In this document: piece after piece, positions 33,946-53,182 of the stretch
Numbering within the stretch: position 1 is the first letter of the stretch
Layout: every line of letters begins with the position of its first letter
Assembly (NCBI GenBank): GCA_049303675.1
Contig: JBAQNJ010000001.1
Coordinates: 664,711 to 728,710 of the forward strand
Reading direction: 5' to 3'
Length of the DNA: 64,000 nt
DNA from: Microgenomates group bacterium
GTDB lineage: Bacteria; Patescibacteriota; Microgenomatia; UBA12405
Made by a program: the position numbers and the translations under genes
The notes under the pieces: model-generated
Database searches by the model: none
Told to the model about the DNA's origin: nothing
Seen by the model: only the letters and a program-made list of their open reading frames with translations

Positions 33946-34754
33946 AAAGTCAACTTCATTTTCTCTCGGTAATTGTCCCAGTTTACAAACAAGAAAAAAC
34001 CATCAAAAAAGATCTTCATAAAATTCAACAAACCCTTGAACAAATCCGCTATCCTTATGAACTAATTGTCGTTATCGACGGAAAAAGTGAAGATAACTCA
34101 TATAAAGTTGCCCAAAAAAGTGCCAACCAGAATCTAAAAGTAATAGGCTACCAACAAAATCACGGCAAGGGCTACGCTATTCGCTATGGTATGGCCCATA
34201 CCCGCGGCGACTATGTCGCCTTTATTGATTCAGGCATGGAGATTGACCCCAATGGTATTTCCATTCTTCTCGAGCATATGGAATGGTATCAGGCGGATAT
34301 AGTTGTTGGCTCCAAATTTCACCCCGCCTCGTTAATCAAATACCCCCTCCATCGTCGGATTATTAGCCTAGGTGCCCATCTCACTTCGGTAGTGCTTTTT
34401 CAATTAAACATACACGACACTCAGGCAGGAATCAAAATATTTAAACAGTCAGTCCTCAACAAAATTCTTCCCCGATTATTAATCAAAACATTCGCCTTTG
34501 ATCTGGAGATGTTAGCAGTCGCCAAATATTTGGGTTTTACCCGTATTTACGAAGCTCCCATAAAACTCAATTATGATTTTAGTAGCACTCATTTAAATAG
34601 TTCTCTTCTCAAGACTATAATCATGTGTCTCAAAGACTCCCTCGCTGTTTTTTATAGGTTAAACATCTTGCACTATTACGACGACAAGAACCGCCGAAAA
34701 TGGATATTTGACAAGGATCTCCAAATGAGAATCAATACCGGTGAATATGAATAA
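33942..34754 (+). CDS. Polyprenol-phosphate sugar synthase-like GT2 (Dpm1/GtrB-like, soluble form)
   Basis: LSVIVPVYKQEK...VVIDGKSEDNS...FIDSGME...DTQAGIKIF (compare DTQCGFKLL in the 2945 gene). Confidence 0.55.
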   Translation: MKSQLHFLSVIVPVYKQEKTIKKDLHKIQQTLEQIRYPYELIVVIDGKSEDNSYKVAQKSANQNLKVIGYQQNHGKGYAIRYGMAHTRGDYVAFIDSGMEIDPNGISILLEHMEWYQADIVVGSKFHPASLIKYPLHRRIISLGAHLTSVVLFQLNIHDTQAGIKIFKQSVLNKILPRLLIKTFAFDLEMLAVAKYLGFTRIYEAPIKLNYDFSSTHLNSSLLKTIIMCLKDSLAVFYRLNILHYYDDKNRRKWIFDKDLQMRINTGEYE

Positions 34755-35742: not shown

Positions 35743-37221
35743 ATGATTCAAAAATTCTCTATTTCCATTTCCTACCCTCCATTAGAAAACTCCAAGGGTA
35801 TTCCTTTTTTGGCTCAAAACCGACAATTTCAGTGGACCAATACTGGCAATGTAATTTTGCCAGTCATACCGGCTTATGGAGCCTCGGCCCTCAAAAATCT
35901 AGGTTATAAAGTCTATTGGGACGACGCCATTGCGAAGAAAATTCCTTATCAAAAATGGTTGTCTCGAATTATTAAGAGAAAACCTTCCTTAATTGCCATA
36001 GAATCCAAAACACCCACCATTAAAAGGCATTGGAAAATTATCAACGAACTAAAAACCAAGCTACCTCGCTCAATTATTGTTCTCATGGGCGATCATGTTA
36101 CTGCTTTGCCCGAGGAATCATTGCAAAATAGTCTCGTTGATTATGTTATCACTGGTGGTGACTACGATTTCATGTTACTAAATCTGGTCGACCATTTAGC
36201 CCACCAAGTCAAGTTAGAATCAGGATTTTGGTATCGAGAAAGAAAAGTTATCACAAATACAGGCAAATTTGCCCTCAAACATCATAATTTAGATACACTT
36301 CCACCCATCGATCGAGAACTAACTAATTGGAAAATATATGGTAACGATAACACCAATTTCAAATATCACCCTGGCGCTTATCTCATGACCGGCAGAGATT
36401 GTTGGTGGGGAAAATGTACTTTCTGTAGCTGGATCAGTATTTTTCCGGGTAACAACTTTCGTAATTTTTCCGTCAAGCATACGGTTGATGAAATTGAATA
36501 CATGGTCTCTCTCGGCATCAAAGAAATTTTTGATGATGCTGGCACACTTCCCATCGGTCCATGGCTTCGTGATTTTTGTCAGGAAATGATCAAGAGGGGA
36601 CTCAATCAAAAAGTAGTTATGGGCTGCAACATGCGCTTTGGTGCTCTAAATCAAGAACAATATGATCTCATGGGACAGGCCGGTTTTCGTTTTATCCTCT
36701 ATGGATTAGAATCTAGTAATCAAAATACTCTCGACAAGATTGTCAAAAATACTCAGGTAGAGGATTCCCGTAAAACTCTAATTATGGCCAAAAAAGCCGG
36801 ACTGGAGCCACATCTGACCATCATGATCGGTTACCCTTGGGAAACCAAGGCTGATGCTATAAATACCCTAAATGAGGCCAGAAGTCTATTTAAAGACGGT
36901 CTGGCTGATAGCATGCAGGCCACCATTGTCGTGCCCTACCCAGGCACCCCACTTTTCAAACAGTGTCAAGAAAATAACTGGCTCACTACCCTTGATTGGA
37001 ACGAATACGACATGCGCCATCCAGTCATGACTGGACCCATCCCCCCCCAAGAGCAGCTTCAATTGGTTCAAAGTTTATTTCATGGTATCCTCACTCCACA
37101 ATTTCTAATTAGAAAGATATTTTCCATCCGTAAGATGAGTGACCTCACTCATTTGTTCAACTATGCCATCAAATATCTCAAAAAACTCCGCGACTTCCCC
37201 CTCACTGCTCCAGCAAATTAG
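35743..37221 (+). CDS. B12-binding-domain radical SAM protein (class B-like), non-canonical cluster motif CWWGKCTFC (Cx4Cx2C)
   Basis: N-terminal Rossmann-like B12-binding-type segment. Cys codons at 36392-36394, 36407-36409 and 36416-36418. TATAGT at 35730-35735 is 7 nt before the ATG. Confidence 0.65.
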   Translation: MIQKFSISISYPPLENSKGIPFLAQNRQFQWTNTGNVILPVIPAYGASALKNLGYKVYWDDAIAKKIPYQKWLSRIIKRKPSLIAIESKTPTIKRHWKIINELKTKLPRSIIVLMGDHVTALPEESLQNSLVDYVITGGDYDFMLLNLVDHLAHQVKLESGFWYRERKVITNTGKFALKHHNLDTLPPIDRELTNWKIYGNDNTNFKYHPGAYLMTGRDCWWGKCTFCSWISIFPGNNFRNFSVKHTVDEIEYMVSLGIKEIFDDAGTLPIGPWLRDFCQEMIKRGLNQKVVMGCNMRFGALNQEQYDLMGQAGFRFILYGLESSNQNTLDKIVKNTQVEDSRKTLIMAKKAGLEPHLTIMIGYPWETKADAINTLNEARSLFKDGLADSMQATIVVPYPGTPLFKQCQENNWLTTLDWNEYDMRHPVMTGPIPPQEQLQLVQSLFHGILTPQFLIRKIFSIRKMSDLTHLFNYAIKYLKKLRDFPLTAPAN

Positions 37222-37933
37222 TACCAAATATAAAATTTATGGATTTTGGTGGACCATAAGATTGACCGCCCAATTCCTTTATCGAAAAATATTTTTTGAA
37301 TTATTGCGCCACTCCTACTCACAATATGGCGAGGATCTAATTATTGCCAGTATCCTAAATAAAAAAAATATATATTACGTCGACATTGGGGCTAATCACC
37401 CCCAAAAATTCAACAATACCTTTATGTTTTATCGTCATGGATCATCGGGTATAAATATCGAACCAAACAAATCACTCCTAAGTCAATATTTTTCCACTCG
37501 TCCCCGTGACCTCAATCTCAACCTCGCCATCTCAGACAAAAACACCTCACTGATTTTCTACAATATGTATCCTGATGTCAACTCTACTATATCCAAAACT
37601 CAATATCTTCACACCCAAAACCTGCATTCTCTTTTAATCAATAAACAAAAAATTAAAGTGAAAACTCTTCAGCATACCCTCCACAAATATCTACCCACCA
37701 ACCAACCCATTGATCTCCTCTGTATCGACACAGAAGGGCATGATTACCAAGTTTTGAAAAGTAATGATTGGTCAAAGTATTCGCCCACAGTCATCTGTAT
37801 TGAAACACAACTCCACGGACTCGAGCAGCAATATCTGTTAAAATTAGGCTATCTACTCTATGCCCAAACAAGCCTCAACAGCATCTACCTCAAAAAAGAT
37901 TCTTCTCTTTTTTCCCTCCCCACTCCCTTATGA
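37139..37933 (+). CDS. FkbM-family SAM-dependent methyltransferase
   Basis: YGEDLIIASIL...YVDIGAN...GINIEPN pattern of the FkbM (Methyltransf_21) family. Annotated start overlaps the upstream radical SAM gene by 83 nt. An in-frame TTG at 37262 would avoid the overlap. The 3' end overlaps the next radical SAM gene by 74 nt. Confidence 0.5.
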   Translation: MTSLICSTMPSNISKNSATSPSLLQQISTKYKIYGFWWTIRLTAQFLYRKIFFELLRHSYSQYGEDLIIASILNKKNIYYVDIGANHPQKFNNTFMFYRHGSSGINIEPNKSLLSQYFSTRPRDLNLNLAISDKNTSLIFYNMYPDVNSTISKTQYLHTQNLHSLLINKQKIKVKTLQHTLHKYLPTNQPIDLLCIDTEGHDYQVLKSNDWSKYSPTVICIETQLHGLEQQYLLKLGYLLYAQTSLNSIYLKKDSSLFSLPTPL

Positions 37934-39422
37934 ACGTAATTGGCATGGAGTCCCTCTCGCTCTGTTAGCCATCTCCAGAATCCTCGACCAAGAGGGTTAT
38001 GACATTAAAATTTATACTCGCTATCTTCAAAAAAACTATGAAAGAGAAATCTTAAAAAATGGTCAAAATGCCATTTGTTTAGGCATTAGTGCCATGACCG
38101 GATTCCAAATTTTTGATGGTCTAAAACTAGCTCGAAAATTTAAAAAAAAATATCCCCAAGTTCCCATAGTCTGGGGAGGCTGGCATCCCTCCATCTTGCC
38201 TCTACAAACGATTAAGGATCCCTGTGTCGATATTATTGTCAAAGGTCAGGGAGACATTACTTTTACCAAGCTTGTCCATGCTCTTCAAAACCAGCAGGAC
38301 TTACAAAAAATCAACGGCATAGTCTACAAAAAAGGCGAAAAAATTATGATCACTCCTGAGCGAGGACCGGTCGATTTATCACTTGTTCCCCATCTTCCCT
38401 ATCACTTAGTTGACGTCAAAAGTTGCACTATTCCTACCGAATATGGCCTTCGGACTGCTCCCTATATCAGTAGTTATGGCTGTCCCCATCGCTGTGCCTT
38501 TTGTGTCGAGGAAATTGTCAACAAACGTAGCTGGAAAGGTGTACCCGCACTCACTGTGGTCAATGAATGGGAAAATCTCTATCGTACCTATGGTGCCGAC
38601 TCAATAGCCGTCTATGACAGCAATTTTTTTGTAGACGAAAATCGAGTGAAATTAATATGCCAAGAAGTGATCAATAGAAAATTACCCATAAAGTGGGGCA
38701 ATGCCAATGGGCGTGCCGGCCAACTAAGTCGATACCGACCCGAGACATGGGAGCTAATGGAACAATCAGGTTGCACCATGATTTTAACTGGTGCCGAATC
38801 AGGGGATCAAAAATCCCTTGATTTCATTAGTAAAGATATGAATGTTGAAGAAATAGTCAAATTTACCCAACTTTGCCATCAACACCATATCAAAATCCTC
38901 TATTCATTTCTCGTCGGGCTTCCCTGGTCCAACCAACCCCAAGAAAATGATCAGTTCGTTGCCACCGAGTACCGTTCCACTCTCGGATTAATTGATAGAT
39001 TACTTAAAATCTGTAATCGTAACCGTTATACCTACTATGTTTTTTTACCTTACCCAGGAGCCTCACTTTACAATCGGGCTCTTAAATTGGGTCTACGCGC
39101 TCCTCAAAGTTTTAGTCAATGGACCAGTTATCTCATGTCACCTGAAAACGCCTTTGAAGAAACAGTTAGGCAGCAGTGGATAAGCCAAAAGGATGCCCGA
39201 ATGACCGCCATGCTTACTCAATATATATTTGGCATCATGGATCGCGACACTTATACCATGTTATACCCGAGACTTACCAATCTCTTTTCTCGAGTTCTCT
39301 TTACTATTGGCTATTACACTGCTTTAATTGTAGTCAGCCTCCGTTGGAAATATAAATACTTTGGTCTACCATTCGATTATTGGCTGTTTTCATTAGTTCA
39401 TCAATATGGCGGCATCATCTAA
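37860..39422 (+). CDS. B12-binding-domain radical SAM protein (class B-like)
   Basis: KKILLFFPSP...LALLAISRIL N-terminal B12-binding-like fold. Canonical SYGCPHRCAFC (CxxxCxxC). A9 tract at 38142-38150. Confidence 0.75.
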   Translation: MPKQASTASTSKKILLFFPSPLPYERNWHGVPLALLAISRILDQEGYDIKIYTRYLQKNYEREILKNGQNAICLGISAMTGFQIFDGLKLARKFKKKYPQVPIVWGGWHPSILPLQTIKDPCVDIIVKGQGDITFTKLVHALQNQQDLQKINGIVYKKGEKIMITPERGPVDLSLVPHLPYHLVDVKSCTIPTEYGLRTAPYISSYGCPHRCAFCVEEIVNKRSWKGVPALTVVNEWENLYRTYGADSIAVYDSNFFVDENRVKLICQEVINRKLPIKWGNANGRAGQLSRYRPETWELMEQSGCTMILTGAESGDQKSLDFISKDMNVEEIVKFTQLCHQHHIKILYSFLVGLPWSNQPQENDQFVATEYRSTLGLIDRLLKICNRNRYTYYVFLPYPGASLYNRALKLGLRAPQSFSQWTSYLMSPENAFEETVRQQWISQKDARMTAMLTQYIFGIMDRDTYTMLYPRLTNLFSRVLFTIGYYTALIVVSLRWKYKYFGLPFDYWLFSLVHQYGGII

Positions 39423-40437
39423 AATACCCTCAGTCTCATTTGTCATCCCGGTACTAAATTCAGGCGATGTTTTAGCCAATTGTCTATTTTCTATTAGAGC
39501 CCAAAAATACCCCCAAAATAAGATAAAAATAATTATCGTCGATGGTGGATCAACTGACGAAACAATTGATATTGCCCGAAGTTATCACTGTCACATTATA
39601 GAAAACTCACTCAAAACAGCTGAGGCCGGCAAGTCAATTGGCGTTGACTGTGTGTCTACTGACCTAGTTGCTTTAATTGATTCTGACAACATTCTCCCCT
39701 CGACTACGTGGCTCAAGATGATGGTCATTCCTTTGAGGCAGGACAGTCGTATTCTTGGAGCCGAGCCGTGGTCATTCACTTATCGATCTCTTGCCGGCTT
39801 TATCGAAAGATATAGTTCCCTTATTGGTGCCAACGATCCTTATACTCTTATAGCCGGCAACTACGACCGCCAAAATCTAATTACCAATAATTGGACTAGT
39901 CTAAATATACATATTTACAACCATCGATATTACCAATCTTTCGCCATAAAACGAGGACAGATAATTCCTACTATTGGAGCCAATGGTACTATCTACCGCT
40001 CCAATTTTCTCCAACAATATAAAACAGGTGACTATTTTTTTGATATCGACTATCTCTCGTTGGCTCTAAAATCAATTAAACAAGTCCACTTTGCCAAGGT
40101 AAAAATCGGTATTATCCATACCTACTGCGAATCTTCCCTGACCAAGTTTTATCAAAAACAGCTACGCCGTGTCAAAGACCTTTATATTTACAAAAATGAA
40201 CGCTATTACCCACTAGTCCACAACCATTTTAAACCATCATTTTTATTTACACTTTATGTGCTGACAATTTTTCCCATGATTTATCACAGCTTACTTGGCT
40301 ATTTTCGACAGCGGGATAAAGCGTGGTTTTTTCACCCTATCGCTTGTATTATTACCTTCTATGTATACAGCACCCAAACCATATTATATTTTCTGGGGCT
40401 GAACCAACCTCAGAGTCGTCATCAATGGCACCAATAA
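39406..40437 (+). CDS. Glycosyltransferase family 2 with C-terminal TM helices
   Basis: VSFVIPVLNSGD...IIIVDGGSTDET...LIDSDNI. Confidence 0.65.
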   Translation: MAASSKIPSVSFVIPVLNSGDVLANCLFSIRAQKYPQNKIKIIIVDGGSTDETIDIARSYHCHIIENSLKTAEAGKSIGVDCVSTDLVALIDSDNILPSTTWLKMMVIPLRQDSRILGAEPWSFTYRSLAGFIERYSSLIGANDPYTLIAGNYDRQNLITNNWTSLNIHIYNHRYYQSFAIKRGQIIPTIGANGTIYRSNFLQQYKTGDYFFDIDYLSLALKSIKQVHFAKVKIGIIHTYCESSLTKFYQKQLRRVKDLYIYKNERYYPLVHNHFKPSFLFTLYVLTIFPMIYHSLLGYFRQRDKAWFFHPIACIITFYVYSTQTILYFLGLNQPQSRHQWHQ

Positions 40438-41543
40438 AAACAATTCTTCACCTTACTCCTTTTTACCCACCAAACATTGGTGGCGTCGAGACCCATCTTC
40501 AGGACCTCACCCAAGTTTTATCTACTCAAAATTATCGCCAGATTGTTCTGACTTATTCACCACTTACTACCACTGTTACCTATCAAAGACTCGAAAAAAA
40601 ACCAAACCTGATTATCAGAAGGTTTTATTTATTCGGCCACAACCTGTTCCACACGCTAGAAAAATACCCTCTTCTCAATTTCTGTTACATCACTCCCTAC
40701 CTATTAGTCAGATCTATTCTCTGGTTATTATTCCACCCCCAAAAAATCGACACTATCCACTCCCACGGATTAAATGGTGCCATTATCGGCAATATTCTCC
40801 AAAAAATATTTTCTATTCCTCGACACCTGACCTCTATCTATTCTACTTACGATAATGTCCCCCTCAATTCACTTGGCACCAAAATACTCGTCTCTACCCT
40901 TAATCACACCAATCATATTGTCACTCAAACAGACCAATCCATCCACCAACTAATTTCACTCGGGGTAGAGCCGAAGAGAATTTCCCGCTATTATCATTGG
41001 CTCGACCTAAATCGTTTTCATCCAGTCAAAAACAAACCATCAACATTTTCAGTATTATTTATTGGCAGGCTAATTCCCGCCAAAAATGCCCTAATGTTGG
41101 CCAAAGTAGCCAGCAAATTTCCTCAACTAATTTTCAATTTCGTGGGTACTGGCCCAGACTATCCTTCACTCAAAAAAATGTCGCTTGTGTTTCCCAATAT
41201 CCGTTTACACGGTGACATTCCTTATAGTCGTCTTCATGAATATTACCAAAGCAACAGCATCTTATGCTTACCCTCCAAATATAGCGAAGGTTGGGGCAGG
41301 GTATTGGCCGAGTCAGTCGCTTGTGGCACTCCTGTGATTTGTAGCCACCTCGGGGGTACAGTCGAAGCAGTCGACTCTACTGTGGCCATTCTGATTCCCC
41401 CCACCATTAGTAATTTCACCAAATCCATCAGGCTTCTCTCTACCCACTCAAAAATATATCTCCAAATGTGCCGACACTGTCGACCCTATGCCACCCAACA
41501 CTATTCCAGCGACAATATCCACTATATCACCCAATTTTACTAA
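40425..41543 (+). CDS. Glycosyltransferase family 4
   Basis: ATG 40425. ILHLTPFYPPNIGGVETH...EGWGRVLAESVACGTPVI. Confidence 0.65.
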   Translation: MAPIKTILHLTPFYPPNIGGVETHLQDLTQVLSTQNYRQIVLTYSPLTTTVTYQRLEKKPNLIIRRFYLFGHNLFHTLEKYPLLNFCYITPYLLVRSILWLLFHPQKIDTIHSHGLNGAIIGNILQKIFSIPRHLTSIYSTYDNVPLNSLGTKILVSTLNHTNHIVTQTDQSIHQLISLGVEPKRISRYYHWLDLNRFHPVKNKPSTFSVLFIGRLIPAKNALMLAKVASKFPQLIFNFVGTGPDYPSLKKMSLVFPNIRLHGDIPYSRLHEYYQSNSILCLPSKYSEGWGRVLAESVACGTPVICSHLGGTVEAVDSTVAILIPPTISNFTKSIRLLSTHSKIYLQMCRHCRPYATQHYSSDNIHYITQFY

Positions 41544-42163
41544 CCTTTTTCTACCTCAAGGTATAGACCCAAATCTCGATGAATTGGCAAATCCAACTTG
41601 GCCACATCCGGCATCTTACTCTTAGCAAATTGTGACAAACCTATCTTAGTAAAACCAACTTTTCTCAATAAATCTACCATCGATTTTTGGTTATACATCC
41701 ATTGATGTCCCCGAATAACAGCTGACTTGATTCCTATATTTTTATCTTTATCATAACCATAAAATTCCCGACAAAAGATATCTGCATTTTCCCATTTTTT
41801 ATATCTACCAACCAATTTATCTAAGTCTGGCACCACCAACCTCATCTTCCCGCCAATTCTCAGCACTCTCCAGCATTCTTTCAAGAATTTTTCTGCTTCG
41901 TATTTTTCCAAGTGTTCCATAAAATTCGAGTGATAGATCCAATCAACACCACCACTCTGAAGCGGGATACCCTTGCGTAAATCATACAACCATATTTTTG
42001 GCCACTTTCTCAAATAACTCTTAGCTACAATTCCCAGTCTTACCAATATAGTCAAAATCAGCGGAAACTTACTCAGTAGTGGTAGCCAACCCCAATCAAA
42101 ATTTATCCACCCCTCCATCCCATCCGGACCAGAACCCAAATTAATGTTCACTTTTCTCTTCAT
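41540..42163 (-). CDS. Class I SAM-dependent methyltransferase
   Basis: VNINLGSGPDGMEGWINFD (motif I-like), MEHL, RVLRIGGKMRLVVP. 207 aa. Confidence 0.55.
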   Translation of the reverse strand: MKRKVNINLGSGPDGMEGWINFDWGWLPLLSKFPLILTILVRLGIVAKSYLRKWPKIWLYDLRKGIPLQSGGVDWIYHSNFMEHLEKYEAEKFLKECWRVLRIGGKMRLVVPDLDKLVGRYKKWENADIFCREFYGYDKDKNIGIKSAVIRGHQWMYNQKSMVDLLRKVGFTKIGLSQFAKSKMPDVAKLDLPIHRDLGLYLEVEKG

Positions 42164-42181
42164 CCCTATATAATATCAAAT
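42164..42181. promoter_or_regulatory. 18-bp divergent promoter region: TATAAT (42169-42174) 7 nt before ATG 42182; TATTAT on - strand (42175..42170) 6 nt before ATG 42163
   Basis: Read directly. Confidence 0.35.
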
Positions 42182-43381
42182 ATGCACCGACCCCAACTCT
42201 TAGTAATCTGTCATGTAAATTTAGGAACAAGTCTGAGTGGAGGAGATAGGATTTTTTTAAACATAATCAAATATTGGCGCAAATACTACCATATTTCTGC
42301 CCTAGCCTCACCCGAAGCTATTAATCTAATAAACCGAAATAAATTACATCCCCAGATTATTTCGACTACCAAATTACCAACCATTAGCCGACTAACCACT
42401 TTTAATCTATTTATTCATCATTCTCTCCGATTTATTACCGGCATTATCTTTTGTCTTACCCACCAGTCAATTTTAAAAAAAGCCCAATATATTTACACCT
42501 CTTCAGATTTTTATGGCGATTTTATCTTTGGGTTAATTGCCAAGTTAGTTAATCCGGCTATTGTCTGGTTTTGTGGTTACTATTTGATGGCACCAAAACC
42601 TACAAATCCAAATTCTCCATACATTATCAATAAATATCCACTTCGAGGATATATATATTATCTAGCCCAAATTCCCACCATTTTTTTTGCCAAAAAATAC
42701 GCCGATCATCTATTTGTCACCTCCGAGCCAGATGTTAAAGTATTTAAAAATAGCCACCTACCAATTAGTAAAATTCATATTATTCAGGGTGGAGTCTATT
42801 TACCAACTCCCCAACAATTATCGACTATGTTACCGCCAAGAGAACGCCAATATGACGCCTTTTTTCTCGGTCGGCTCCACTCCCAAAAGGGAATTATTGA
42901 AATGGTCGAAATCTGGAGACTTGTTGTCAATAAATACCCCACTGCCAAACTCGTAATTATTGGTGATGGCGAACTAATGATACAAATGCTGCAAAAAATT
43001 TCTAAATTAAAATTAAAAAATAACATTACTATAATTGGATTCTTAATCGGACCCGAAAAGTTCAATATCATTAAAGATAGCAAAATTGTTATTCATCCCG
43101 CCACCTACGATAGTGGCGGTATGGCCGCCGCCGAAGCGATGGCGTGGGGACTACCCGGAGTCAGTTTTGACCTTCCGGCACTCAAAACATATTATCCCAT
43201 TGGTATGATCAAAACACCCAATTTGGATATCCAAAAATTTGCTGACAACATTGTTCTGCTTCTTCGAGATCAAAAGCTGTACCACCATATCTCACAAGAT
43301 GCCCTAAAGCTAACCAGAGATGTCTGGGGTTGGGCAAAACGACTTGACAATATCTACTCTCAGATAAAGGTCAGTAGGTAG
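42182..43381 (+). CDS. Glycosyltransferase family 4
   Basis: GGMAAAEAMAWGLPGVSFDL. 399 aa. Confidence 0.65.
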   Translation: MHRPQLLVICHVNLGTSLSGGDRIFLNIIKYWRKYYHISALASPEAINLINRNKLHPQIISTTKLPTISRLTTFNLFIHHSLRFITGIIFCLTHQSILKKAQYIYTSSDFYGDFIFGLIAKLVNPAIVWFCGYYLMAPKPTNPNSPYIINKYPLRGYIYYLAQIPTIFFAKKYADHLFVTSEPDVKVFKNSHLPISKIHIIQGGVYLPTPQQLSTMLPPRERQYDAFFLGRLHSQKGIIEMVEIWRLVVNKYPTAKLVIIGDGELMIQMLQKISKLKLKNNITIIGFLIGPEKFNIIKDSKIVIHPATYDSGGMAAAEAMAWGLPGVSFDLPALKTYYPIGMIKTPNLDIQKFADNIVLLLRDQKLYHHISQDALKLTRDVWGWAKRLDNIYSQIKVSR

Positions 43382-44847
43382 GTTCTAGTAAACGCTCCCA
43401 ATTTTATTCCAAAGCCTCTCCATCCATCCCGCTTGACTATTTCCCTAATCGTCCCTACAAACCCACTATGCCTTATTCTCGTTTTTAAATACAACATCGC
43501 TGCTTTTGGTAAGTTACTTTCAATTTCCTTTTTACTATAGTCAGGATATTGATAGACAGCGGTATTACCATTGTATTTGCGCCAATCACTCGTCAACAGA
43601 TAGCCCTTATCCATCAACAAATTGTAAAATGGAGTTCCGGGCTGAGGTGTACACACCGATGCCTGAAAATCCCACAATAAACCTTCTTTTGTCAGCTTAT
43701 TTATCAAGTCTAGGGTTTTGCCATCTTCCACTACATTTGAATCAGGTGAACCAAAAGTGAAGGTAGCGTACATCCTCATCCCCACCTTTTTTGCCATCTT
43801 CAACACCTCAATTATTCGATCCACATTCACATTTTTTACCATTCCTCTGGCTGTTTTTACTGACGCTGTCTCAATCCCGATTCTGATTTTATAATAACCA
43901 GCCTTTCTCATCATCGCCATCATCTCCTCGTCAAATGTCCAATAGCCACACATAGCATCGTACTTCAAGTCTGTCAGCTTATTGTCGATGATCGCTTGAC
44001 ACAACTCCATCACAAATTTTTTATTCGAATTGTGGTTTTCCTCATCAAAAAAGATTCCCTCCATCTCTGGATATTTATTTTTCAAATACTTTATTTCCGC
44101 AATGACGTCAGCCACCTCTCTAACTCTAAAATTTGGTTTTCCATAATAAGTTTGCCGTGCCACACAAAAATTGCAGTTCATTGGGCAGCCTCGAGTAGCA
44201 AAAAATTCAATTTCTTTATAATCACAGCCGCCAATTCTTGTATAGTTTATCCGACTAATATCCTTATCTTCCGGAAAAGGCAATTTTGTCACATCCAACA
44301 GCTCCTTAACTGGATTGGGATATATACCGTCAATTTTTTTGGCTGATTGGCCTTCGATTAACTTAACCACTGCTGGCTCATATTCACCTGTAGCTACAAA
44401 ATCAATTCCATCTGCTAGTACATCACTGGGGAAAGCCGTTGGATGTTGGCCACAAAAAATCAATTTTGTCCCAAATTTTTTCTTAAACTTCAGGGCAAAT
44501 CTCAAGTCATATTTATATACCACCGATGAAGTCTCCAATACCAAATAATCAGGTCTGAATGATTTGTATTTCTCAAAATATGCCTCCGCTGTCAACTCTT
44601 CGTAATTTCCATCTACCATTTTTACTTTCAATTTTTTGTTCTGTTTCAACATTGAAGATAGATATCCCAGTTCATAAGGATAAAAGTTGAAAGATTTAGT
44701 CTTACCCACACAAGTTGACCACCTAGATGGAAACAGAATATAATGATTTCCTTCATCATCCAGACCGACAGAGTTACACACCAATACTTTTTTTGTTATT
44801 TTCATAAAATATGATAACATCTTTTTATTATCTACTACAGCTGTCAT
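43360..44847 (-). CDS. B12-binding-domain radical SAM protein (class B-like)
   Basis: TRGCPMNCNFC canonical motif. N-terminal B12-binding-like region. ATG at 44847. Confidence 0.75.
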   Translation of the reverse strand: MTAVVDNKKMLSYFMKITKKVLVCNSVGLDDEGNHYILFPSRWSTCVGKTKSFNFYPYELGYLSSMLKQNKKLKVKMVDGNYEELTAEAYFEKYKSFRPDYLVLETSSVVYKYDLRFALKFKKKFGTKLIFCGQHPTAFPSDVLADGIDFVATGEYEPAVVKLIEGQSAKKIDGIYPNPVKELLDVTKLPFPEDKDISRINYTRIGGCDYKEIEFFATRGCPMNCNFCVARQTYYGKPNFRVREVADVIAEIKYLKNKYPEMEGIFFDEENHNSNKKFVMELCQAIIDNKLTDLKYDAMCGYWTFDEEMMAMMRKAGYYKIRIGIETASVKTARGMVKNVNVDRIIEVLKMAKKVGMRMYATFTFGSPDSNVVEDGKTLDLINKLTKEGLLWDFQASVCTPQPGTPFYNLLMDKGYLLTSDWRKYNGNTAVYQYPDYSKKEIESNLPKAAMLYLKTRIRHSGFVGTIREIVKRDGWRGFGIKLGAFTRTYLLTFI

Positions 44848-44858
44848 AATTAATTATG
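44845..44858. promoter_or_regulatory. Perfect 14-nt palindrome CATAATTAATTATG containing both divergent start codons (44847 on - strand, 44856 on + strand) and CATAAT boxes 5 nt from each
   Basis: Reverse complement of 44845-44858 is identical to itself. Only 8 bp separate the two paralogous radical SAM genes. Confidence 0.4.
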
Positions 44859-46418
44859 AAAACAGACGTTATTCTAATATTTGTCGGTCAGTATAACTCC
44901 AAAAACCCCTATCATCACTACGTTTCCCCACTCGGAATTGCCAATGTATCCGCCTATTTAAATAAGCAAAAGATAACAACTAAACAAGTAGACTTACGTC
45001 TACTACCCGATTTTAATGCCTTAAAGAAAATCCTTCTCCAGCGTAAACCCACAATGATCGGTTTTTCCCAACTCACTACCGAAGCAGATTTGATCGACAA
45101 TCTTGTCGAGCAAGTCAATACACTTCTCCCTAAAACAAAATTAATAATCGGTGGGCCTCACCCATCAGTTTTACCTCGTGAATCCGCTAGCATTCCCCAC
45201 ATTCTGGCTGCAGTTTACGGGGAAGGTGAGATCACTGCTTACAATTTATTTAAGTCATTTCAACAACACACCCCACTATCAAAGATTAAAGGTATAGCCT
45301 ATCGACACAAATCTGGAGAAATTATCCTCAATCCTCCACAAGAATTTATTAAAAACTTAGATATATTACCTTTTCCCGATCGCCACATTCTCAATTCAGG
45401 GGACTATTTTAGCCAAGCATACGACCTATTTTTTCCCATGAAATACCCCTATGCCAACATTTTTGTCAGTCGCGGTTGTCCCGCCATGTGCACCATGTGT
45501 CAACCCACAATTGATAAATTATTTGGTCGCCCCTTTAGATTCCGTAGCGCCAAAAACGTCATCACTGAGATAAAAATGTTAATCAAAAAATATCATGTCC
45601 AGAGTATCATATTTTGGGATGACACCCTCACTGCTAACAAAAAATGGATGGAGGAATTTACCTCTCTCATTGTTGCCGAAAAATTAAATTTTGACTGGTG
45701 GTGTTATTCACGGGTCAATTACATCAATCCAGAAGTTCTTAAAATAGTCAAACAGGCAGGTTGTAAAATGATCTGTTTTGGTATTGAATCTGGGTCAGAC
45801 CGCATTCTCAAAGTAATCAACAAGGGTACCAACGCCGCCCAGAATGAGTATGCTATCAATCAATGCCACAAATACGGTATTCTCGCCAACGCCAATATGA
45901 TGATTGGTATGCCCACCGAAACACTTGACGATGTCATCATGACAGACCAGCTTTTGGCTCGCACCAAACCAGACATAGTTTGGGCTTCAGTTTTATCACC
46001 ACTTCCAGGAACATATCTAGGCGACGCCTTTATGCGTAGCGATGAATTCCAGCGAACCTCAGCCCACAATAATTGGAGTGAACTAATCCGCGCCCAGACA
46101 GGCAAGGCCAAGATAAACAATACTATCGACATTAAATACATCATAAAATACCAATCCCGATGGCATTATACTCGATTTAAACCCAGCCTCCTATTCAAAA
46201 AATATTATCGTGATATCTGTGCCAGTCGAATTGCCTGCCACCTTACTTCTCACCATCCTGAGAGAATATTTCACGAGTTTATTATCGGCCCATTAATCGA
46301 ATTAACTAGACACTTTTATTGGCTACTCTACTACTATTGGAACTATGAAATGTTCCCTCAACCTCTACCACTCCATGTTGAGCCATTAGGGCCGAAACGA
46401 TCCAAAGTATTGGGATAG
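44856..46418 (+). CDS. B12-binding-domain radical SAM protein (class B-like)
   Basis: SRGCPAMCTMC canonical motif. N-terminal B12-binding-like region. Long C-terminal tail. Confidence 0.75.
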   Translation: MKTDVILIFVGQYNSKNPYHHYVSPLGIANVSAYLNKQKITTKQVDLRLLPDFNALKKILLQRKPTMIGFSQLTTEADLIDNLVEQVNTLLPKTKLIIGGPHPSVLPRESASIPHILAAVYGEGEITAYNLFKSFQQHTPLSKIKGIAYRHKSGEIILNPPQEFIKNLDILPFPDRHILNSGDYFSQAYDLFFPMKYPYANIFVSRGCPAMCTMCQPTIDKLFGRPFRFRSAKNVITEIKMLIKKYHVQSIIFWDDTLTANKKWMEEFTSLIVAEKLNFDWWCYSRVNYINPEVLKIVKQAGCKMICFGIESGSDRILKVINKGTNAAQNEYAINQCHKYGILANANMMIGMPTETLDDVIMTDQLLARTKPDIVWASVLSPLPGTYLGDAFMRSDEFQRTSAHNNWSELIRAQTGKAKINNTIDIKYIIKYQSRWHYTRFKPSLLFKKYYRDICASRIACHLTSHHPERIFHEFIIGPLIELTRHFYWLLYYYWNYEMFPQPLPLHVEPLGPKRSKVLG

Positions 46419-47169
46419 TCACTATTTGGAAAACCACCATTAGTCTCCGCGGCAAATGAATATTAAATTTCGTCAAAATAGAATACCCTAGCACTTGACG
46501 ATACTCCAACATGTTATTTTTTACTAAAATATCAGTATAACCACATCTTTCAAACAGTCTAATCAGTCCATGATCGCTAAACAAAAATTTATGATACGGA
46601 TAATCAGCATGGTACCAATTTATTCCAGCCAAGTCAGCCTCCCATGAATTAACATTTGGTACCCGCACTACCAATTTAGCGCCATTATTCAAATATCTAG
46701 TCAATTTAACCAAAAACGCGTCTGGGTTCTCAATATGCTCTAATACTTGATACATCAACACCACATCAAATTTCATCTTGAAGCTATCCAAACTAGCAAA
46801 TACTTTACCTTTTCCTATTTTGTTAGATAGATTGTCGCGGGCCCACTTTGACTTATCGATTCCATACACTTTATATAATCTTTTGTTTAATTCGTTTATC
46901 ATTTTTCCCCCACCAAAACCTATCTCCAATATTTTATCAGTCGATTTCAAGTTCAAAGTCCGATATCTATCCCAAAATGACAGCCAGTCGATAATCCCCA
47001 TCCACCAGACATTTACCCCCCGAGTATAATATTTTCCCTGATACAGTTGGCTTTCTGCCACTTTTTTCAATAACCTTAAACTGCCACACTCAGGGCAACG
47101 ATAATATTTTTTATATACCGTATCTCCCTCCTCTTGACTACCGCACACCCAGCATTTTAACTTTTTCAT
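46306..47169 (-). CDS. Class I SAM-dependent methyltransferase with N-terminal C4 zinc ribbon
   Basis: CWVCGS...CPECGS zinc ribbon. ILEIGFGGGKMINEL...VLMYQVLEHIENP...LVVRVPN. Convergent 113-nt overlap with 44856..46418. Confidence 0.55.
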   Translation of the reverse strand: MKKLKCWVCGSQEEGDTVYKKYYRCPECGSLRLLKKVAESQLYQGKYYTRGVNVWWMGIIDWLSFWDRYRTLNLKSTDKILEIGFGGGKMINELNKRLYKVYGIDKSKWARDNLSNKIGKGKVFASLDSFKMKFDVVLMYQVLEHIENPDAFLVKLTRYLNNGAKLVVRVPNVNSWEADLAGINWYHADYPYHKFLFSDHGLIRLFERCGYTDILVKNNMLEYRQVLGYSILTKFNIHLPRRLMVVFQIVTIPILWIVSALMAQHGVVEVEGTFHSSNSSRVANKSV

Positions 47170-48061
47170 AATGATACCCTTGTGACTTCCATAATATCAC
47201 CATTATCTGCATAACCATATTTGGAAAAACATTATATCTGTTAATATTTTTTTCCAACCACAATTGTGGCCCATTCCAAATCTTCCATGCCCCAACATCC
47301 AATATCATTTTGCCGATACCGCTCTTAACCAAAAAAGGTAAAAAATTAATCGGCAACTTCGACTCTAGGTGGAAAAGGCCCCGACCATGACTTATAAATC
47401 TCGATTTAATTTCCGCCAAACCCAACTCATGATAGTGCCAGACAACCGCCAGTCCATCATAAAATAATTTTAAACCCTTTGTTTTGGCTCTATAGGCAAA
47501 CTCAATATCTTCCCACGCCGCAGTCGGAAATTCTTCGCAAAATTTTATATCATTTTGCCTTACGAACTCATTTTTCATCGATAAATTACAAGTCCACAAG
47601 TAATACCAGGGGATCTGCATAATTCTCTTTTTATCAGTAAACAAATAGTTAAAATGTAATCCACTTTGGCCTACCAACCATTTCATTGCCGGAATATTGA
47701 CAGTATCGGGATGGTTTTGAGTAAATCCCACCATCGCCCTAGAGATTTCCGGTCGCCTTTGGTGAAACATCAAATGTCTTTCTATAAAATTATCGTCGAC
47801 AAAACTATCATCATTTAAAAACAAGAGTAACTTTCCTCTTGCCCTTTGCATCGCCTCATTTCTCGCTTTGGCTGGACCATTCGCCCCTTCCACCACAATA
47901 ATTTCATCTGTTTTATTATCAATCTGCTGGTTTAGTAATCTCAGTGCTTCATGCAAGACATCACTCCGGTCCAAAGTCGGAATTATTACACTCAACCTTA
48001 TTCGTGTCTTAGTTTTTTCCATACCCATAAAATTCGCAAGACCACAAATATAATCGGCCAA
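47138..48061 (-). CDS. Glycosyltransferase family 2
   Basis: RLSVIIPTLDRSD...FLNDDSFVDD. Codon at 48061 is TTG. ATGs at 48028 or 48022 (MGMEKTK / MEKTK) are more likely starts. Confidence 0.6.
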   Translation of the reverse strand: MADYICGLANFMGMEKTKTRIRLSVIIPTLDRSDVLHEALRLLNQQIDNKTDEIIVVEGANGPAKARNEAMQRARGKLLLFLNDDSFVDDNFIERHLMFHQRRPEISRAMVGFTQNHPDTVNIPAMKWLVGQSGLHFNYLFTDKKRIMQIPWYYLWTCNLSMKNEFVRQNDIKFCEEFPTAAWEDIEFAYRAKTKGLKLFYDGLAVVWHYHELGLAEIKSRFISHGRGLFHLESKLPINFLPFLVKSGIGKMILDVGAWKIWNGPQLWLEKNINRYNVFPNMVMQIMVILWKSQGYHYEKVKMLGVR

Positions 48062-49392
48062 GAAATTATCTTGGGCAATTTCATAGCAAACGCCGTCCCT
48101 AGCAACATTTTTCGCAAGACAATCATGTCCACCGACGACAAATATTTTGTCTTCATATTACTAGTATTACCGTTGAACTTATTCCAATCAAAATCCTCTA
48201 TTAATCCGTTCTTCAGTGCATCATCAAACATTTCTGTCCCAGGATACGGGGTAATTGTACTAAAGCCCACTGACTCAGGATTGAGTTTGACCAGATATTC
48301 AAATGTATTCGACATAGTTCTCAAATTCTCATCAGGCAATCCAATTATCATCAAAAAATGTAATTTTACTCCTACTTCTAGGGCCGTCTGTCTAATTTTA
48401 GTCACCGCATCTAGGCTTACCCCTGGTTTTCCTTGATAAATTATTAGTTCCTGATCCAGTGTCTCAACTCCAACATTTATTCCCATACATCCTGCCTTTT
48501 TCATTATCTTTAACAGCTCTGGTGTCAACACATTAATTCTCGTCTCACACCACCAATCAAACTTTAGTTTATTTTTTATGATCAACTGACACAGTTCCTC
48601 AGTTCTCTTATTATCGAGGGTAAATGTCGCATCTCTAAACAAAATACTTCGAATACCCAGATCCACTATATTCTTTATTTCCAAAATTATTCGATGATTA
48701 CTCATTGCCCGCCATGCTTTTCCTTGAACTAGGGGATAAGGACAATAAAATCCGCAAGGATAGGGACAGCCACGGCTAGTCTGCATGGTAGTCACTACTC
48801 CGGGCAACAAGACATATTTATATAAATTAGATTTAGTCAATTCCCGTGCTGAAATCGGTAAATCATCCAGATTTTTGATTCTATCCTCGATGGTAATCGG
48901 CTCAAACACCACCTTACCTCGCGACAAATATATGCTGGCTGTATTACGCTTTTTTTCAACATATTCATGGATAGTCAAATCACATTCACCAAACAAGATT
49001 CTCTCTGCACCGCTATCCCATAGTGCTTTTTCCAATATTTGTCGGTAACTAATCCCAGTTTTGATAATCACTCGAATATTTTTATATTTATCGATCAATT
49101 TTCTGACAAACATTGTGTCCTCAGTTAGTGTCGGTAATGCCATTCCACACAAAACCAAATCAATTTTGTGAGTCACCATGTATTTTTCAAAATAGCCAAA
49201 GTCGTCAATACTCTCAGCAATCGCATCTACAAAATACACCCCATACTTTTTCTTTATCAAAGTCGCCGCCGAATTCAACAAATCAATCGGCGGCAAAACC
49301 ACCCCTTCCCCACCACTATAGCCCAAACCACCTGCCATATCTCTATTAATTGTCTTGTCACTTGAGGGTGGGTTTACTATCAATATATTCAT
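47998..49392 (-). CDS. B12-binding-domain radical SAM protein, non-canonical motif CPYPCGFYC (Cx3Cx3C)
   Basis: MNILIVNPPSS N-terminus typical of this class. Cys cluster encoded about 48735-48785 on the - strand. Confidence 0.6.
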   Translation of the reverse strand: MNILIVNPPSSDKTINRDMAGGLGYSGGEGVVLPPIDLLNSAATLIKKKYGVYFVDAIAESIDDFGYFEKYMVTHKIDLVLCGMALPTLTEDTMFVRKLIDKYKNIRVIIKTGISYRQILEKALWDSGAERILFGECDLTIHEYVEKKRNTASIYLSRGKVVFEPITIEDRIKNLDDLPISARELTKSNLYKYVLLPGVVTTMQTSRGCPYPCGFYCPYPLVQGKAWRAMSNHRIILEIKNIVDLGIRSILFRDATFTLDNKRTEELCQLIIKNKLKFDWWCETRINVLTPELLKIMKKAGCMGINVGVETLDQELIIYQGKPGVSLDAVTKIRQTALEVGVKLHFLMIIGLPDENLRTMSNTFEYLVKLNPESVGFSTITPYPGTEMFDDALKNGLIEDFDWNKFNGNTSNMKTKYLSSVDMIVLRKMLLGTAFAMKLPKIISWPIIFVVLRILWVWKKLRHE

Positions 49393-51107
49393 TGTTTACT
49401 TCGTGCTCTTAATTGTAACAGTGCCTCCATTGCTTGTTTATGGTTTGGGTATGCCCTGAGTATCCCCTCTAAGACTGCTATCGCCTGACTATTTTCTCCC
49501 ATTTGAGACAACACCACTGCCAAGACATAATTGACAGTTGGATCATTCGGGCTAACTTTGAGTGCTTTGTTCACATCCTCCAATGCCTGGTCAATTTTTT
49601 TTTCAGTAAGATCGATATTAATTAAGCTTAAATATGTTTGGTACAAAGTTGGACTATAATAAAGGGCAGTATTATAGCTTTCCCTAGCCAAATCCAATCT
49701 GCCCATCTTGAAAAATATATTCGCCCGATTATGGAAGGCATCGGCATAGTTTGGTTTGACAATAGTTGACTGAGTAAATCCCTTGATCGCATTATCATAT
49801 TGCTTTAGCTTATCGTAATCATCCCCAATGTTGTTCCAAGCATTATGTGAATTGGGAGACACCTGACAGGTATTTACCCACAACAAATGATTTGTAGTCC
49901 AATCTTTATTTCTCTGAACTGTTCTAATACTGTAAAAAACCATCAACAATACCAGCAACAACCCTGCCACATATTTATTAAAATTTCCAATTTTAGTGAA
50001 AATTAGCCCCAGCAACAGACAAAATCCCAGTGAACCCAAATAGGCATATCTCTCCGCCACTAGCCAGCTCACTTTTACCGGTGCCATCGACGGCAGAATC
50101 GCCAATAATATAAATAATAAAGCAAATGAATATCTCCTATCCACCCACGAAAAATATATAATAATCCCCAAATACGACAACAATATTAGCCAATTTAGCC
50201 AAACCGGAAAAATATACATCGTGTGGTATAAAGTCAGATCTATTGGCAGCCACAGTAACTGGAGATACTTAGCAATTCCTGTTGGATACTGAAAAAATGG
50301 ATTATAAAAAATACTTTCCGATATATTTGTTCCCGAGTTTACTATTGTCACCCGCGACACGATATGAGGCCAGAAAAATACCAAGACGAGCAACATTGGC
50401 AACAATAACCACGGCCAATATTTGAACCACTTATTATGCCTAATATCAATTTTGAACAACCATAAATACAAGGGAATAATAAAAAATAATGAAAACGGTC
50501 TCGGATTGTCTGTCAAAAACCCTAGTATAAAAAACAGCCACATTCCTCCAAAATATTCGATTTTTTCAGTCTCGACAAACTTGATAAACAATAGTAGGGA
50601 CATTAATACATACATGGCTATCAACAGATACGGCTTGCCCGATATCCAGGTTACCGCCTCCACATGGATCGGATGAACAATAAAGATTGACATCGTCAAC
50701 CACGCCACCACTTTCCCAAACAGATGATAAACCAAGACAAATGCCAAAACACAAGTCACCATAAAAATTACCAAACTACTTAAATGATATTGAAGTGGAG
50801 CCACCCCAAACACTTTGGCCACCATGCTATGGATAAAATAAGTAGTTGCCCCACCTCTAAAGGCATATTGCCATTCTGTTAATTCAGGATTATTCAAAAT
50901 AGTCGCATAATCATCCGACACAAAATCTCCCTGCATTCCATTAGCAAACACCACAATTATCGCCAATAATATAATAGCCAAAAAAACAATATTCTCCTTA
51001 ATAATCTTCAAAAATTGCAACTTTTCCACTGGGCCAGTGTATGACTCTATCACCCTGACACTTTCTTCATGTATTTTTCTCAATTTCTTTAATTTTCTCT
51101 GGGACAT
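49389..51107 (-). CDS. TMTC-like protein: N-terminal polytopic membrane (GT-C-like, loop motif DFVSDDYATILNNP) domain plus C-terminal TPR repeats
   Basis: C-terminal about 200 aa form tandem about 34-aa TPR-like repeats (AWNNIGDDY..., ADAFHNRANIFF..., ...). ATG at 51107 is preceded by TAAAAT (51118..51113) at 5 nt. The ORF-track start 51161 is TTG. Confidence 0.5.
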   Translation of the reverse strand: MSQRKLKKLRKIHEESVRVIESYTGPVEKLQFLKIIKENIVFLAIILLAIIVVFANGMQGDFVSDDYATILNNPELTEWQYAFRGGATTYFIHSMVAKVFGVAPLQYHLSSLVIFMVTCVLAFVLVYHLFGKVVAWLTMSIFIVHPIHVEAVTWISGKPYLLIAMYVLMSLLLFIKFVETEKIEYFGGMWLFFILGFLTDNPRPFSLFFIIPLYLWLFKIDIRHNKWFKYWPWLLLPMLLVLVFFWPHIVSRVTIVNSGTNISESIFYNPFFQYPTGIAKYLQLLWLPIDLTLYHTMYIFPVWLNWLILLSYLGIIIYFSWVDRRYSFALLFILLAILPSMAPVKVSWLVAERYAYLGSLGFCLLLGLIFTKIGNFNKYVAGLLLVLLMVFYSIRTVQRNKDWTTNHLLWVNTCQVSPNSHNAWNNIGDDYDKLKQYDNAIKGFTQSTIVKPNYADAFHNRANIFFKMGRLDLARESYNTALYYSPTLYQTYLSLINIDLTEKKIDQALEDVNKALKVSPNDPTVNYVLAVVLSQMGENSQAIAVLEGILRAYPNHKQAMEALLQLRARSKQ

Positions 51108-51112
51108 AGTCC

Positions 51113-53181: not shown

Positions 53182-53182
53182 C

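Follow-up and report, generated by a model that had tools for sequence, protein, structure and literature searches.

A mosaic set of radical SAM genes, including a putative AprD4-family member, in a glycosylation island of a Microgenomates bacterium

We analysed a 64,000-nucleotide stretch of contig JBAQNJ010000001.1 (hereafter, the window) from a metagenome-assembled genome of approximately 1 Mb, assigned to the Microgenomates, for which Candidatus Shapirobacteria are the closest species-representative genomes. Positions 35743–49392 of the window carry five genes encoding radical S-adenosylmethionine (SAM) proteins, interleaved with methyltransferase and glycosyltransferase (GT) genes. The listing of open reading frames (ORFs) places these five genes, rS1 (35743–37221, + strand), rS2 (37860–39422, +), rS3 (43360–44847, −), rS4 (44856–46418, +) and rS5 (47998–49392, −), where the initial annotation of this DNA had located them, and the products of all five pass the Radical_SAM profile PF04055. 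Our analysis indicates that the interval is probably a mosaic of glycan-tailoring genes within a cell-envelope glycosylation island. Central to this reading is rS5, which resembles the aminoglycoside diol dehydratase AprD4 and whose homologs recur next to, or fused with, reductase and GT genes in many phyla.

rS5 is related to AprD4

The best NCBIfam match of rS5 was NF033070, the AprD4-family diol dehydratase profile (E 1.6e-74, 251.4 bits, profile positions 8–420 of 456). Residues 3–423 of rS5 align with residues 9–421 of AprD4 (PDB 6FD2; E 1.6e-54), and the two proteins have in common the segments GCPYPC.FYCPYPL, FRD and WWCETR. The cysteine cluster is of the CX3CX3C type, CPYPCGFYC in rS5 and CPYPCRFYC in AprD4, and this motif is invariant in 29 members of the rS5 family. 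A Pfam search of rS5 returned no match to the B12-binding domain PF02310. At the level of sequence, rS5 is an AprD4-family radical SAM protein and a putative 1,2-diol dehydratase.

AprD4 is a radical SAM 1,2-diol dehydratase that, together with the NADPH reductase AprD3, strips the 3'-hydroxyl from paromamine; it acts on glycosides, namely a pseudodisaccharide and also pseudotrisaccharides (PMC5461906). According to a 2026 review, AprD4 has a Rossmann-like domain but binds no cobalamin (PMC12931638). Because rS5 falls into the same family, it is predicted not to be a B12 enzyme. At most four of the five proteins would then depend on B12, where the initial annotation had counted five, and one step at this locus would be a deoxygenation rather than a methylation. 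The aminoglycoside (2-deoxystreptamine) setting of AprD4 was not found around rS5, the neighbours of which are GT2, GT4, PMT_2, methyltransferase and ABC-2 transporter genes only. Among these neighbours, a GT2 gene follows rS5 (47138–48061, −; PF00535, E 7e-13). The candidate reductase partner is an extended short-chain dehydrogenase/reductase (SDR) of the NAD-dependent epimerase/dehydratase family (51465–52397, −; PF01370, E 2.6e-21).

AprD4-like genes form a cassette that recurs across phyla

Using an alignment of rS5 homologs, we retrieved 80 AprD4-like loci from species-representative genomes and compared their ORFs with the proteins of the window. These loci span Patescibacteria, Omnitrophota, Elusimicrobiota, Planctomycetota, Actinomycetota, Nitrospirota (the largest share) and Cyanobacteria, as well as Tumebacillus and Streptomyces. 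Of the 80 loci, 59 encode an extended SDR no more than 4 kb from the AprD4-like gene, 55 encode another class B radical SAM protein at this distance, and at least 37 have a GT2 like that at 47138–48061, either at this distance or fused. In Patescibacteria, Omnitrophota, Elusimicrobiota and Actinomycetota, each member of the cassette has a gene of its own.

In 31 of the 80 loci the AprD4-like ORF is longer than 1000 aa, and Pfam analysis resolved several domain fusions. A Nitrospira protein of 1388 aa has the order AprD4-like, GT2, GT2 and TPR; a 1990-aa version in Nitrospirota carries additional GT domains; and in two Planctomycetota loci (L052 and L058) an SDR (Epimerase) domain precedes the AprD4-like domain in a protein of ~780 aa. 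The GT2 that follows rS5 is 30% identical (E 3e-28) to residues 511–725 of a Nitrospira fusion (L043:10001–14167), which correspond to the first GT2 domain, so the gene order in the window mirrors the domain order of the fusion. We regard the fusions as the strongest indication that rS5 is tied to a reductase and to glycan assembly, and the combination of SDR with GT2 and TPR partners points to sugar deoxygenation. In Streptomyces, the gene after the AprD4 homolog encodes a classical adh_short SDR, which would fit the role of AprD3; the envelope-type cassette appears to use an extended SDR instead.

The same partners raise the question of which sugars are modified. Nucleoside diphosphate (NDP) sugars are the usual substrates of extended SDRs in the epimerase/dehydratase family, and an SDR adjoins or is fused with the AprD4-like domain. 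Both observations would suit a scheme in which these enzymes modify soluble nucleotide-activated sugars ahead of their transfer, giving unusual NDP-deoxy or branched sugars. However, the known AprD4 substrates are pseudodisaccharide and pseudotrisaccharide glycosides, not NDP-sugars (PMC5461906); in 31 of the 80 loci the AprD4-like domain occurs in fusions with GT2, GT4 and TPR polymerase-like proteins; and neither the window nor its flanks showed a gene for a nucleotidyltransferase or an NDP-sugar 4,6-dehydratase. Modification of free nucleotide sugars is possible in this system, but rather unlikely, and less consistent with the AprD4 substrate class and the GT fusions than modification of sugar residues during glycan assembly, the reading that we favour.

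rS1 to rS4 have a class B-type architecture

We compared the five proteins with the Pfam gathering scores of PF04055 (29.5 bits) and of the B12-binding profile PF02310 (32.1 bits). All five exceeded the former (38–75 bits), and rS1, rS2 and rS4 reached the latter. The respective scores were 47.5 and 35.5 bits for rS1, 38 and 43.0 for rS2, 58 and 24.3 for rS3, and 74.9 and 56.4 for rS4. The B12-binding segment that the initial annotation had assigned to all five proteins was thus recovered in rS1, rS2 and rS4, scored below the cutoff in rS3 and was not detected in rS5. The cysteine cluster is CX4CX2C in rS1 and CX3CX2C in rS2, rS3 and rS4. Because pairwise identity among rS1–rS5 is 23–30%, the five genes can be called paralogous, as they had been, at the superfamily level only. 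They appear to be superfamily relatives rather than products of a recent local expansion, and each has its own orthologs elsewhere (50–87% identity).

The best NCBIfam matches of rS1–rS4 were HpnJ and BchE, both non-methylases, with scores only a quarter to a third as high as the cutoffs. HpnJ was the top match for rS1, rS3 and rS4, with scores of 137–169 bits; the full range of HpnJ scores was 104–169 bits, against a cutoff of 577.6. Scores for other families were 96–152 bits for BchE (cutoff 481), 60–80 for HpnR (650), 47–122 for QCMT (360) and 59–106 for the ladderane family rSAM_ladder_B12 (360). No methylase, lipid or RiPP (ribosomally synthesised and post-translationally modified peptide) family came near its NCBIfam cutoff for rS1–rS4. 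AlphaFold2 (AF2) models were made for rS1 (pLDDT 78.5) and rS3 (pLDDT 93), and each comprises a Rossmann domain and a partial TIM barrel. In Foldseek comparisons of these models, AprD4 ranked first (TM ~0.72), ahead of QCMT, TsrM, CysS, OxsB and TokK (TM 0.58–0.71). This structural comparison, which the initial annotation had suggested, confirmed the class B two-domain fold for rS1 and rS3. Across rS1–rS4 we predict the same two-domain architecture, with cobalamin use remaining putative. Class B enzymes hold cobalamin base-off and do not touch its lower (alpha) face directly, and the review of these enzymes offers no sequence rule by which binding could be recognised (PMC12931638).

rS1 is distinguished by its non-canonical CX4CX2C motif (CWWGKCTFC), and the segment GRDCWWGKCTFCSW is invariant in 29 family members. 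In the AF2 model, the loop after this motif (residues 222–237) was of low confidence. The rS1 sequence matched mainly the AprD4 and QCMT cores in a PDB search, its family profile matched OxsB weakly, and the top Foldseek matches were AprD4, TsrM, QCMT and OxsB. Among the orthologs, the top 120 listed clusters all share at least 65% identity, and every one with a named source is from Shapirobacteria or Patescibacteria. For rS2, the N-terminal domain aligns with the cobalamin domain of TokK (E 1.5e-10). Orthologs of rS2 were found only in Patescibacteria loci and are 61–82% identical in three of them (L009, L010 and L012).

Most rS3 orthologs carry a precomputed PF02310 match, and the rS3 family profile matches the B12-domain fragment 4Q37; the rS3 sequence itself matches mainly the AprD4 and QCMT cores in the PDB. 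The family comprises 689 homologs at E<=1e-20, none of them named, and orthologs of 50–60% identity adjoin AprD4-like genes in Omnitrophota, Actinomycetota, Planctomycetales and Falkowbacteria. This family, conserved but uncharacterised, thus accompanies AprD4-like genes in several phyla. Some homologs (P0147, P0153, P0176 and P0186) are ~800 aa long and have an additional radical SAM region that includes a SPASM domain (PF13186). The public gene call for rS3 gives a protein of 481 aa (43360–44805) that starts 42 nt further in. As listed here, rS3 and rS4 diverge from starts that are 8 bp apart and lie inside a perfect palindrome, CATAATTAATTATG (44845–44858), and ~18 bp separate the ORFs of another divergent pair (42163/42182). 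With such ORFs nearly abutting, the promoters must sit within neighbouring genes.

The strongest B12-domain signal of the five belongs to rS4, which in PDB sequence searches matched QCMT, OxsB (including its cobalamin domain) and CysS. At E<=1e-30 it has 7,381 cluster representatives, and the nearest 50%-cluster representative is merely 41% identical. We consider rS4 a generic class B protein and an accessory gene. Several of its homologs (P0362, P0372, P0373, P0393 and others) are giant proteins of 1,500–2,700 aa with two to four class B radical SAM-like stretches each.

These profiles bear on the possibility that all five proteins are cobalamin-dependent and mainly C-methyltransferases, which together would produce a heavily C- and O-methylated glycan. 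The PF02310 matches of rS1, rS2 and rS4 fit such a scheme, as do the alignments of rS2 to the TokK cobalamin domain and of rS4 to OxsB and CysS, the existence of class B enzymes that C-methylate sugars (GenK, GenD1, Fms7 and MoeK5; PMC12931638) and the three interleaved methyltransferase genes. It is contradicted for rS5, an AprD4-family protein with a CX3CX3C cluster and no PF02310 match whose namesake binds no cobalamin. The four other proteins have non-methylases as their best NCBIfam matches and reach the cutoff of no methylase family, and the closest solved structure to both rS1 and rS3 is that of AprD4. We consider it decidedly improbable that all five are B12-dependent methylases. Within the glycan-tailoring reading, the precedents for class B chemistry on sugars include C-methylation by GenK, GenD1, Fms7 and MoeK5, and other or unknown transformations by OxsB and HpnJ (PMC12931638). 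The chemistry of rS1–rS4 may accordingly be C-methylation or rearrangement, between which the sequence evidence does not discriminate.

The interval is a mosaic of separately distributed units

The arrangement of the interval is syntenic in two Shapirobacteria genomes (L009 and L010), with 73–87% protein identity. L009 keeps rS5, rS4, rS3 and rS2 together with all interleaved genes at 50–87% identity; the sequence of its locus ends inside the rS2 gene, and the position of rS1 lies outside the coverage. In L010, rS5, GT2, methyltransferase and rS3 genes are contiguous, and rS2, rS1 and the FkbM-family gene between them are also present, whereas rS4 is absent from this otherwise syntenic locus. 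In two other Microgenomates contigs (L089 and L090), rS1 ends a PMT_2(n)-GT2-GT4-GT2-GT2 block with the order seen in the window, and is the sole radical SAM gene within 10 kb on either side.

This distribution suggests that the interval is a mosaic of at least three separately distributed units, rather than one module, as initially proposed, or a local gene-family expansion. In the first unit, rS1 would be the last gene of a GT2-GT4-GT2-GT2-rS1 block present in other Microgenomates. The second would combine rS2 with the FkbM methyltransferase and with GT2, GT4 and methyltransferase genes, to which rS4 is a dispensable add-on. The third, running from the SDR gene to rS5-GT2-methyltransferase-rS3, would be the local version of the cassette of AprD4-like radical SAM protein, extended SDR, GT2 and class B radical SAM protein that is found in many phyla. 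No other radical SAM ORF or fragment was detected in the 64-kb window by BLASTP and TBLASTN, so the clustering of five is not a matter of chance.

Genes surrounding the radical SAM cluster

The glycosylation island extends over more than 80 kb, taking in the whole window and ~20 kb on each side. It contains many GT2 and GT4 genes, YfhO, a Wzx-like flippase, a Wzm/Wzt ABC-2 exporter, acyltransferase_3 genes and further methyltransferases, as well as at least 10 PMT_2-type GT-C membrane proteins, with a tandem run of related genes. Six membrane proteins of ~530–580 aa encoded at 18883–31975 are distantly related to one another (22–34% identity), and three of the six have a recorded PMT_2 (GT-C) match. 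Five members of this PMT_2-like family are in tandem at 22236–31975, and more PMT_2-like genes are found elsewhere in the window and flanks.

The block that precedes rS1 consists, by Pfam assignment, of four + strand genes: GT2 (31920–32876), GT4 (32878–33945), GT2 (33942–34754) and GT2 (34741–35712). Overlapping rS1 is an FkbM-family (Methyltransf_21) SAM methyltransferase ORF (37139–37933, +; PF05050, E 2.4e-19), the true start of which is probably downstream of the overlap. Beyond rS2 lie a GT2 gene (39406–40437, +; Pfam) and a GT4 gene (40323–41543, +; Pfam; a 372-aa product in the public annotation), both syntenic in L009 and L010. They are followed by a small class I SAM methyltransferase gene (Methyltransf_11; 41540–42163, −; PF08241, E 2.9e-5), which is kept between two GT4 genes in L009, L010, L012 and L014, and by a GT4-type gene (Glycos_transf_1; 42182–43381, +; PF00534, E 2.4e-23). 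Between rS4 and the GT2 gene next to rS5, a zinc-ribbon (CxxC...CxxC) is combined with a class I SAM methyltransferase (Methyltransf_23; 46306–47169, −; PF13489, E 2.5e-20); this gene comes after the GT2 gene in the same four loci also. Of the interleaved genes listed in the initial annotation, the three methyltransferases and two GT2 genes stand, while two GT4 genes, not three, lie inside the interval, the third being that at 32878–33945.

Directly upstream of rS5 is a gene for a membrane GT-C (PMT_2) glycosyltransferase with C-terminal TPR repeats (49389–51161, −; Pfam), which also adjoins the rS5 orthologs of L009, L010, L012 and L013 and is nearby in L014. The sole sizeable non-coding stretch near the cluster, ~300–350 bp at ~51108–51464, separates this gene from that of the SDR. 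At the corresponding position L009 has an extra 327-aa ORF, of which no remnant was detectable in this stretch. Beyond the SDR gene, Pfam identified genes for a Wzm-like ABC-2 permease (52381–53181, +), a NYN-domain protein, predicted to be an RNase (53153–53698, +), and a Wzt-like ATPase (53714–54472, +), the NYN ORF lying between the two exporter genes. The Wzm/Wzt-like pair (52381–54472) likely exports a lipid-linked glycan, and the three-gene segment is kept beside the cassette in L009, L010, L012 and L014. In the Patescibacteria locus L012, two NYN-homologous ORFs occur amid the exporter genes where the window has one.

No lipid-synthesis, RiPP, cobalamin-uptake or cobalamin-synthesis genes were visible in the ~100 kb context, nor were nrdJ or metH. 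This context, together with lipid-family scores below the cutoffs, upholds the earlier preference for a glycan over a lipid locus. Modification of a lipid (a membrane lipid or the polyprenyl carrier), on the model of the class B enzymes of hopanoid, ladderane or tetraether synthesis, might be suspected from the top NCBIfam matches, which include HpnJ, HpnR and a "lipid biosynthesis B12-binding/radical SAM protein" family. The HpnJ and rSAM_ladder_B12 scores are far under their cutoffs, the fusion partners of the AprD4-like proteins are GT domains, and HpnJ targets the sugar portion of a hopanoid glycoside. A lipid target is thus very unlikely.

Least likely of all is a peptide or protein target, whether a RiPP or a surface protein glycosylated by the PMT_2 enzymes: weak NCBIfam matches to the RiPP maturases ApyD and rSAM_ocin_1, the fusion of some rS3-family members to a SPASM-domain radical SAM region and the many PMT_2-type protein-mannosyltransferase-like genes would speak for it, but RiPP family scores are far under the cutoffs, the cross-phylum partners are SDR and GT2 proteins, no protease or RiPP transporter was found among the window and flank genes, and 35743–49392 has no intergenic space for a precursor gene (coding density ~100%), the sole ~300-bp gap lying outside it. 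Lipid and RiPP targets are therefore disfavoured by family cutoffs, by gene context and by the lack of room for a precursor, and the dismissal of a RiPP in the initial annotation holds. Glycan tailoring in the cell envelope remains our explanation of the interval.

The window is tightly packed throughout, with many gene overlaps of 4–100 nt, and a tRNA scan found no tRNA genes in it. Only 1 of the 52 genes is preceded by a Shine-Dalgarno-like 4-mer, compared with ~7% in random windows of the same sequence, which, with the coding density of ~100%, bears out the extreme packing and missing Shine-Dalgarno motifs described in the initial annotation. Strand composition is extremely asymmetric. The GC skew of the + strand is ~−0.3 throughout 1–64000, and third codon positions, read on the coding strand, have a skew of −0.475 in the 42 + strand genes versus +0.491 in the 10 − strand genes. 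Amino-acid usage differs between + and − strand genes, e.g., 4.5% versus 8.1% for Val and 4.5% versus 7.0% for Gly. Most genes lie on the C-rich strand, which under the usual rule would be the lagging strand.

Proposed pathway and significance

On the gene identities, domain architecture, synteny, fusions and AprD4 relationship described above, we base the following model. Its substrates, order of steps and products, and the chemistry and cofactors of rS1–rS4, are proposals. GT2 and GT4 enzymes would assemble a polyprenyl-phosphate-linked glycan in the cytoplasm. rS5, using a 5'-deoxyadenosyl radical and no cobalamin, would act on a sugar residue at a vicinal diol and dehydrate it to a keto-deoxy sugar, the ketone of which the SDR would reduce, the net result being a deoxygenation like that of paromamine by AprD4 and AprD3. 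rS1–rS4 might functionalise unactivated sugar C–H positions, with C-methylation as the commonest precedent and a rearrangement of the HpnJ or OxsB type as the alternative, and the three methyltransferases (FkbM-type and class I) would add O-methyl or N-methyl groups. The product may leave through the adjacent Wzm/Wzt exporter, or be flipped and transferred on the outside by PMT_2 or YfhO GT-C enzymes. A radical-modified glycan, as put forward in the initial annotation, is thus the best reading of the glycan context, but its heavy C-methylation found no support, given best matches of rS1–rS4 to non-methylases below cutoff and a deoxygenation-type rS5.

Several observations weigh against this model. 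At 251 bits, rS5 does not attain the NF033070 equivalog cutoff of 500, which makes it an AprD4 relative rather than an ortholog, and the AprD4 substrate cannot be carried over to it. The SDR gene of the window lies two genes away from rS5, its product is 21–29% identical to the SDRs abutting AprD4-like genes elsewhere, and it is of the extended type whereas the Streptomyces partner is of the classical adh_short type. Because ~35 of the 80 comparison loci are from Nitrospira or Nitrospirota, the co-occurrence counts are phylogenetically redundant. Fusion to GT domains would also be compatible with action on nucleotide sugars. Finally, C-methylation by rS1–rS4 is a guess from precedent, since none of the four matches a characterised family above its cutoff.

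More tentatively, and with somewhat less than even confidence, we propose that the cassette represents a widespread, uncharacterised glycan-tailoring system in which a diol dehydratase of the AprD4 type that needs no cobalamin, together with an extended SDR, a dedicated GT2 and a class B partner, deoxygenates and C-functionalises sugars during assembly of cell-surface polysaccharides. If so, the chemistry of AprD4, known to date from aminoglycoside antibiotics alone, would give bacteria a general means of making deoxy or branched envelope sugars, and Shapirobacteria-like bacteria of the candidate phyla radiation (CPR) would stack up to four further class B enzymes upon it, including the clade-typical CX4CX2C enzyme. 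The model predicts new deoxy or C-branched envelope sugars and provides candidate genes for them. Radical SAM sugar chemistry has been characterised in antibiotic pathways; here it would be wired into primary cell-envelope glycan assembly. Carriers of the cassette include ultra-small CPR bacteria, nitrifiers (Nitrospira), Planctomycetes and other phyla, and the isolates among them, Nostoc calcicola, Tumebacillus avium and Streptomyces, offer a route to experiments.

A further implication concerns B12. With rS5 predicted to be B12-free and many rS1 orthologs in Patescibacteria, the puzzle of B12-dependent enzymes in such a genome is reduced from five enzymes to at most four, and is both softened and generalised: either CPR bacteria obtain corrinoids by scavenging to serve as many as four envelope enzymes, or B12 is dispensable, as it is for AprD4, in many radical SAM proteins labelled "B12-binding". 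The literature searched contained nothing relevant on glycan loci of CPR bacteria with radical SAM or B12 enzymes, nor on AprD4 homologs in polysaccharide synthesis, and a paper on CPR bacteria in groundwater refers to cobalamin ambiguously. The radical SAM clusters with nitrogenase paralogs in Elusimicrobia are a different system. The kinds of enzyme are known, but the cross-phylum envelope-glycan cassette and the stacking of class B enzymes in a CPR genome appear to be undescribed in that literature.

Comparison with known systems

Among characterised systems, polysaccharide pathways with Wzm/Wzt export and terminal methylation of the WbdD type resemble the locus in that Wzm/Wzt adjoin cytoplasmic GTs and SAM methyltransferases, and the multidomain GT-TPR proteins of the Nitrospirota version of the cassette are a further likeness. 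We know of no characterised Wzm/Wzt system of which radical SAM tailoring enzymes are a part, and to our knowledge CPR bacteria have no lipopolysaccharide. HpnI/HpnJ provides a case in which a GT2 gene adjoins a class B radical SAM gene, as here, and the proposed reaction of HpnJ is a ring contraction of a hopanoid glycoside. The scores of the window proteins are, however, far under the HpnJ cutoff of 577.6, and the locus has no hopanoid genes. The ring contraction by OxsB is a non-methylating class B precedent on a sugar ring (PMC12931638).

GenK, GenD1/GntE, Fms7 and MoeK5 share with rS1–rS4 the architecture of an N-terminal Rossmann domain (PF02310) and a radical SAM domain, and they act on sugar carbons of glycosides (PMC12931638; PMC4340712, PMC4039129). 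The likeness seen is one of architecture; in NCBIfam sequence comparisons rS1–rS4 have HpnJ and BchE, below cutoff, as their best matches. The sugar C-methylating enzymes are known from actinobacterial antibiotic pathways rather than from envelope glycans.

AprD4/AprD3, which carries out the C3'-deoxygenation of apramycin synthesis (6FD2), is the closest system to rS5. The two radical SAM proteins align over their full length and share the CX3CX3C cluster with its flanking residues, rS5 is without a detectable B12 domain, an SDR-superfamily protein is its candidate reductase partner, and AprD4 is known to act on a sugar residue that is part of a glycoside (PMC5461906). They differ in that rS5 scores under the equivalog cutoff (251 versus 500 bits), its candidate partner is an extended SDR (PF01370) rather than a classical adh_short protein like that beside the Streptomyces homolog, and it is encoded in an envelope glycosylation island rather than in a 2-deoxystreptamine aminoglycoside cluster. 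Also part of the rS5 cassette are a GT2 and a second radical SAM protein of the class B type.

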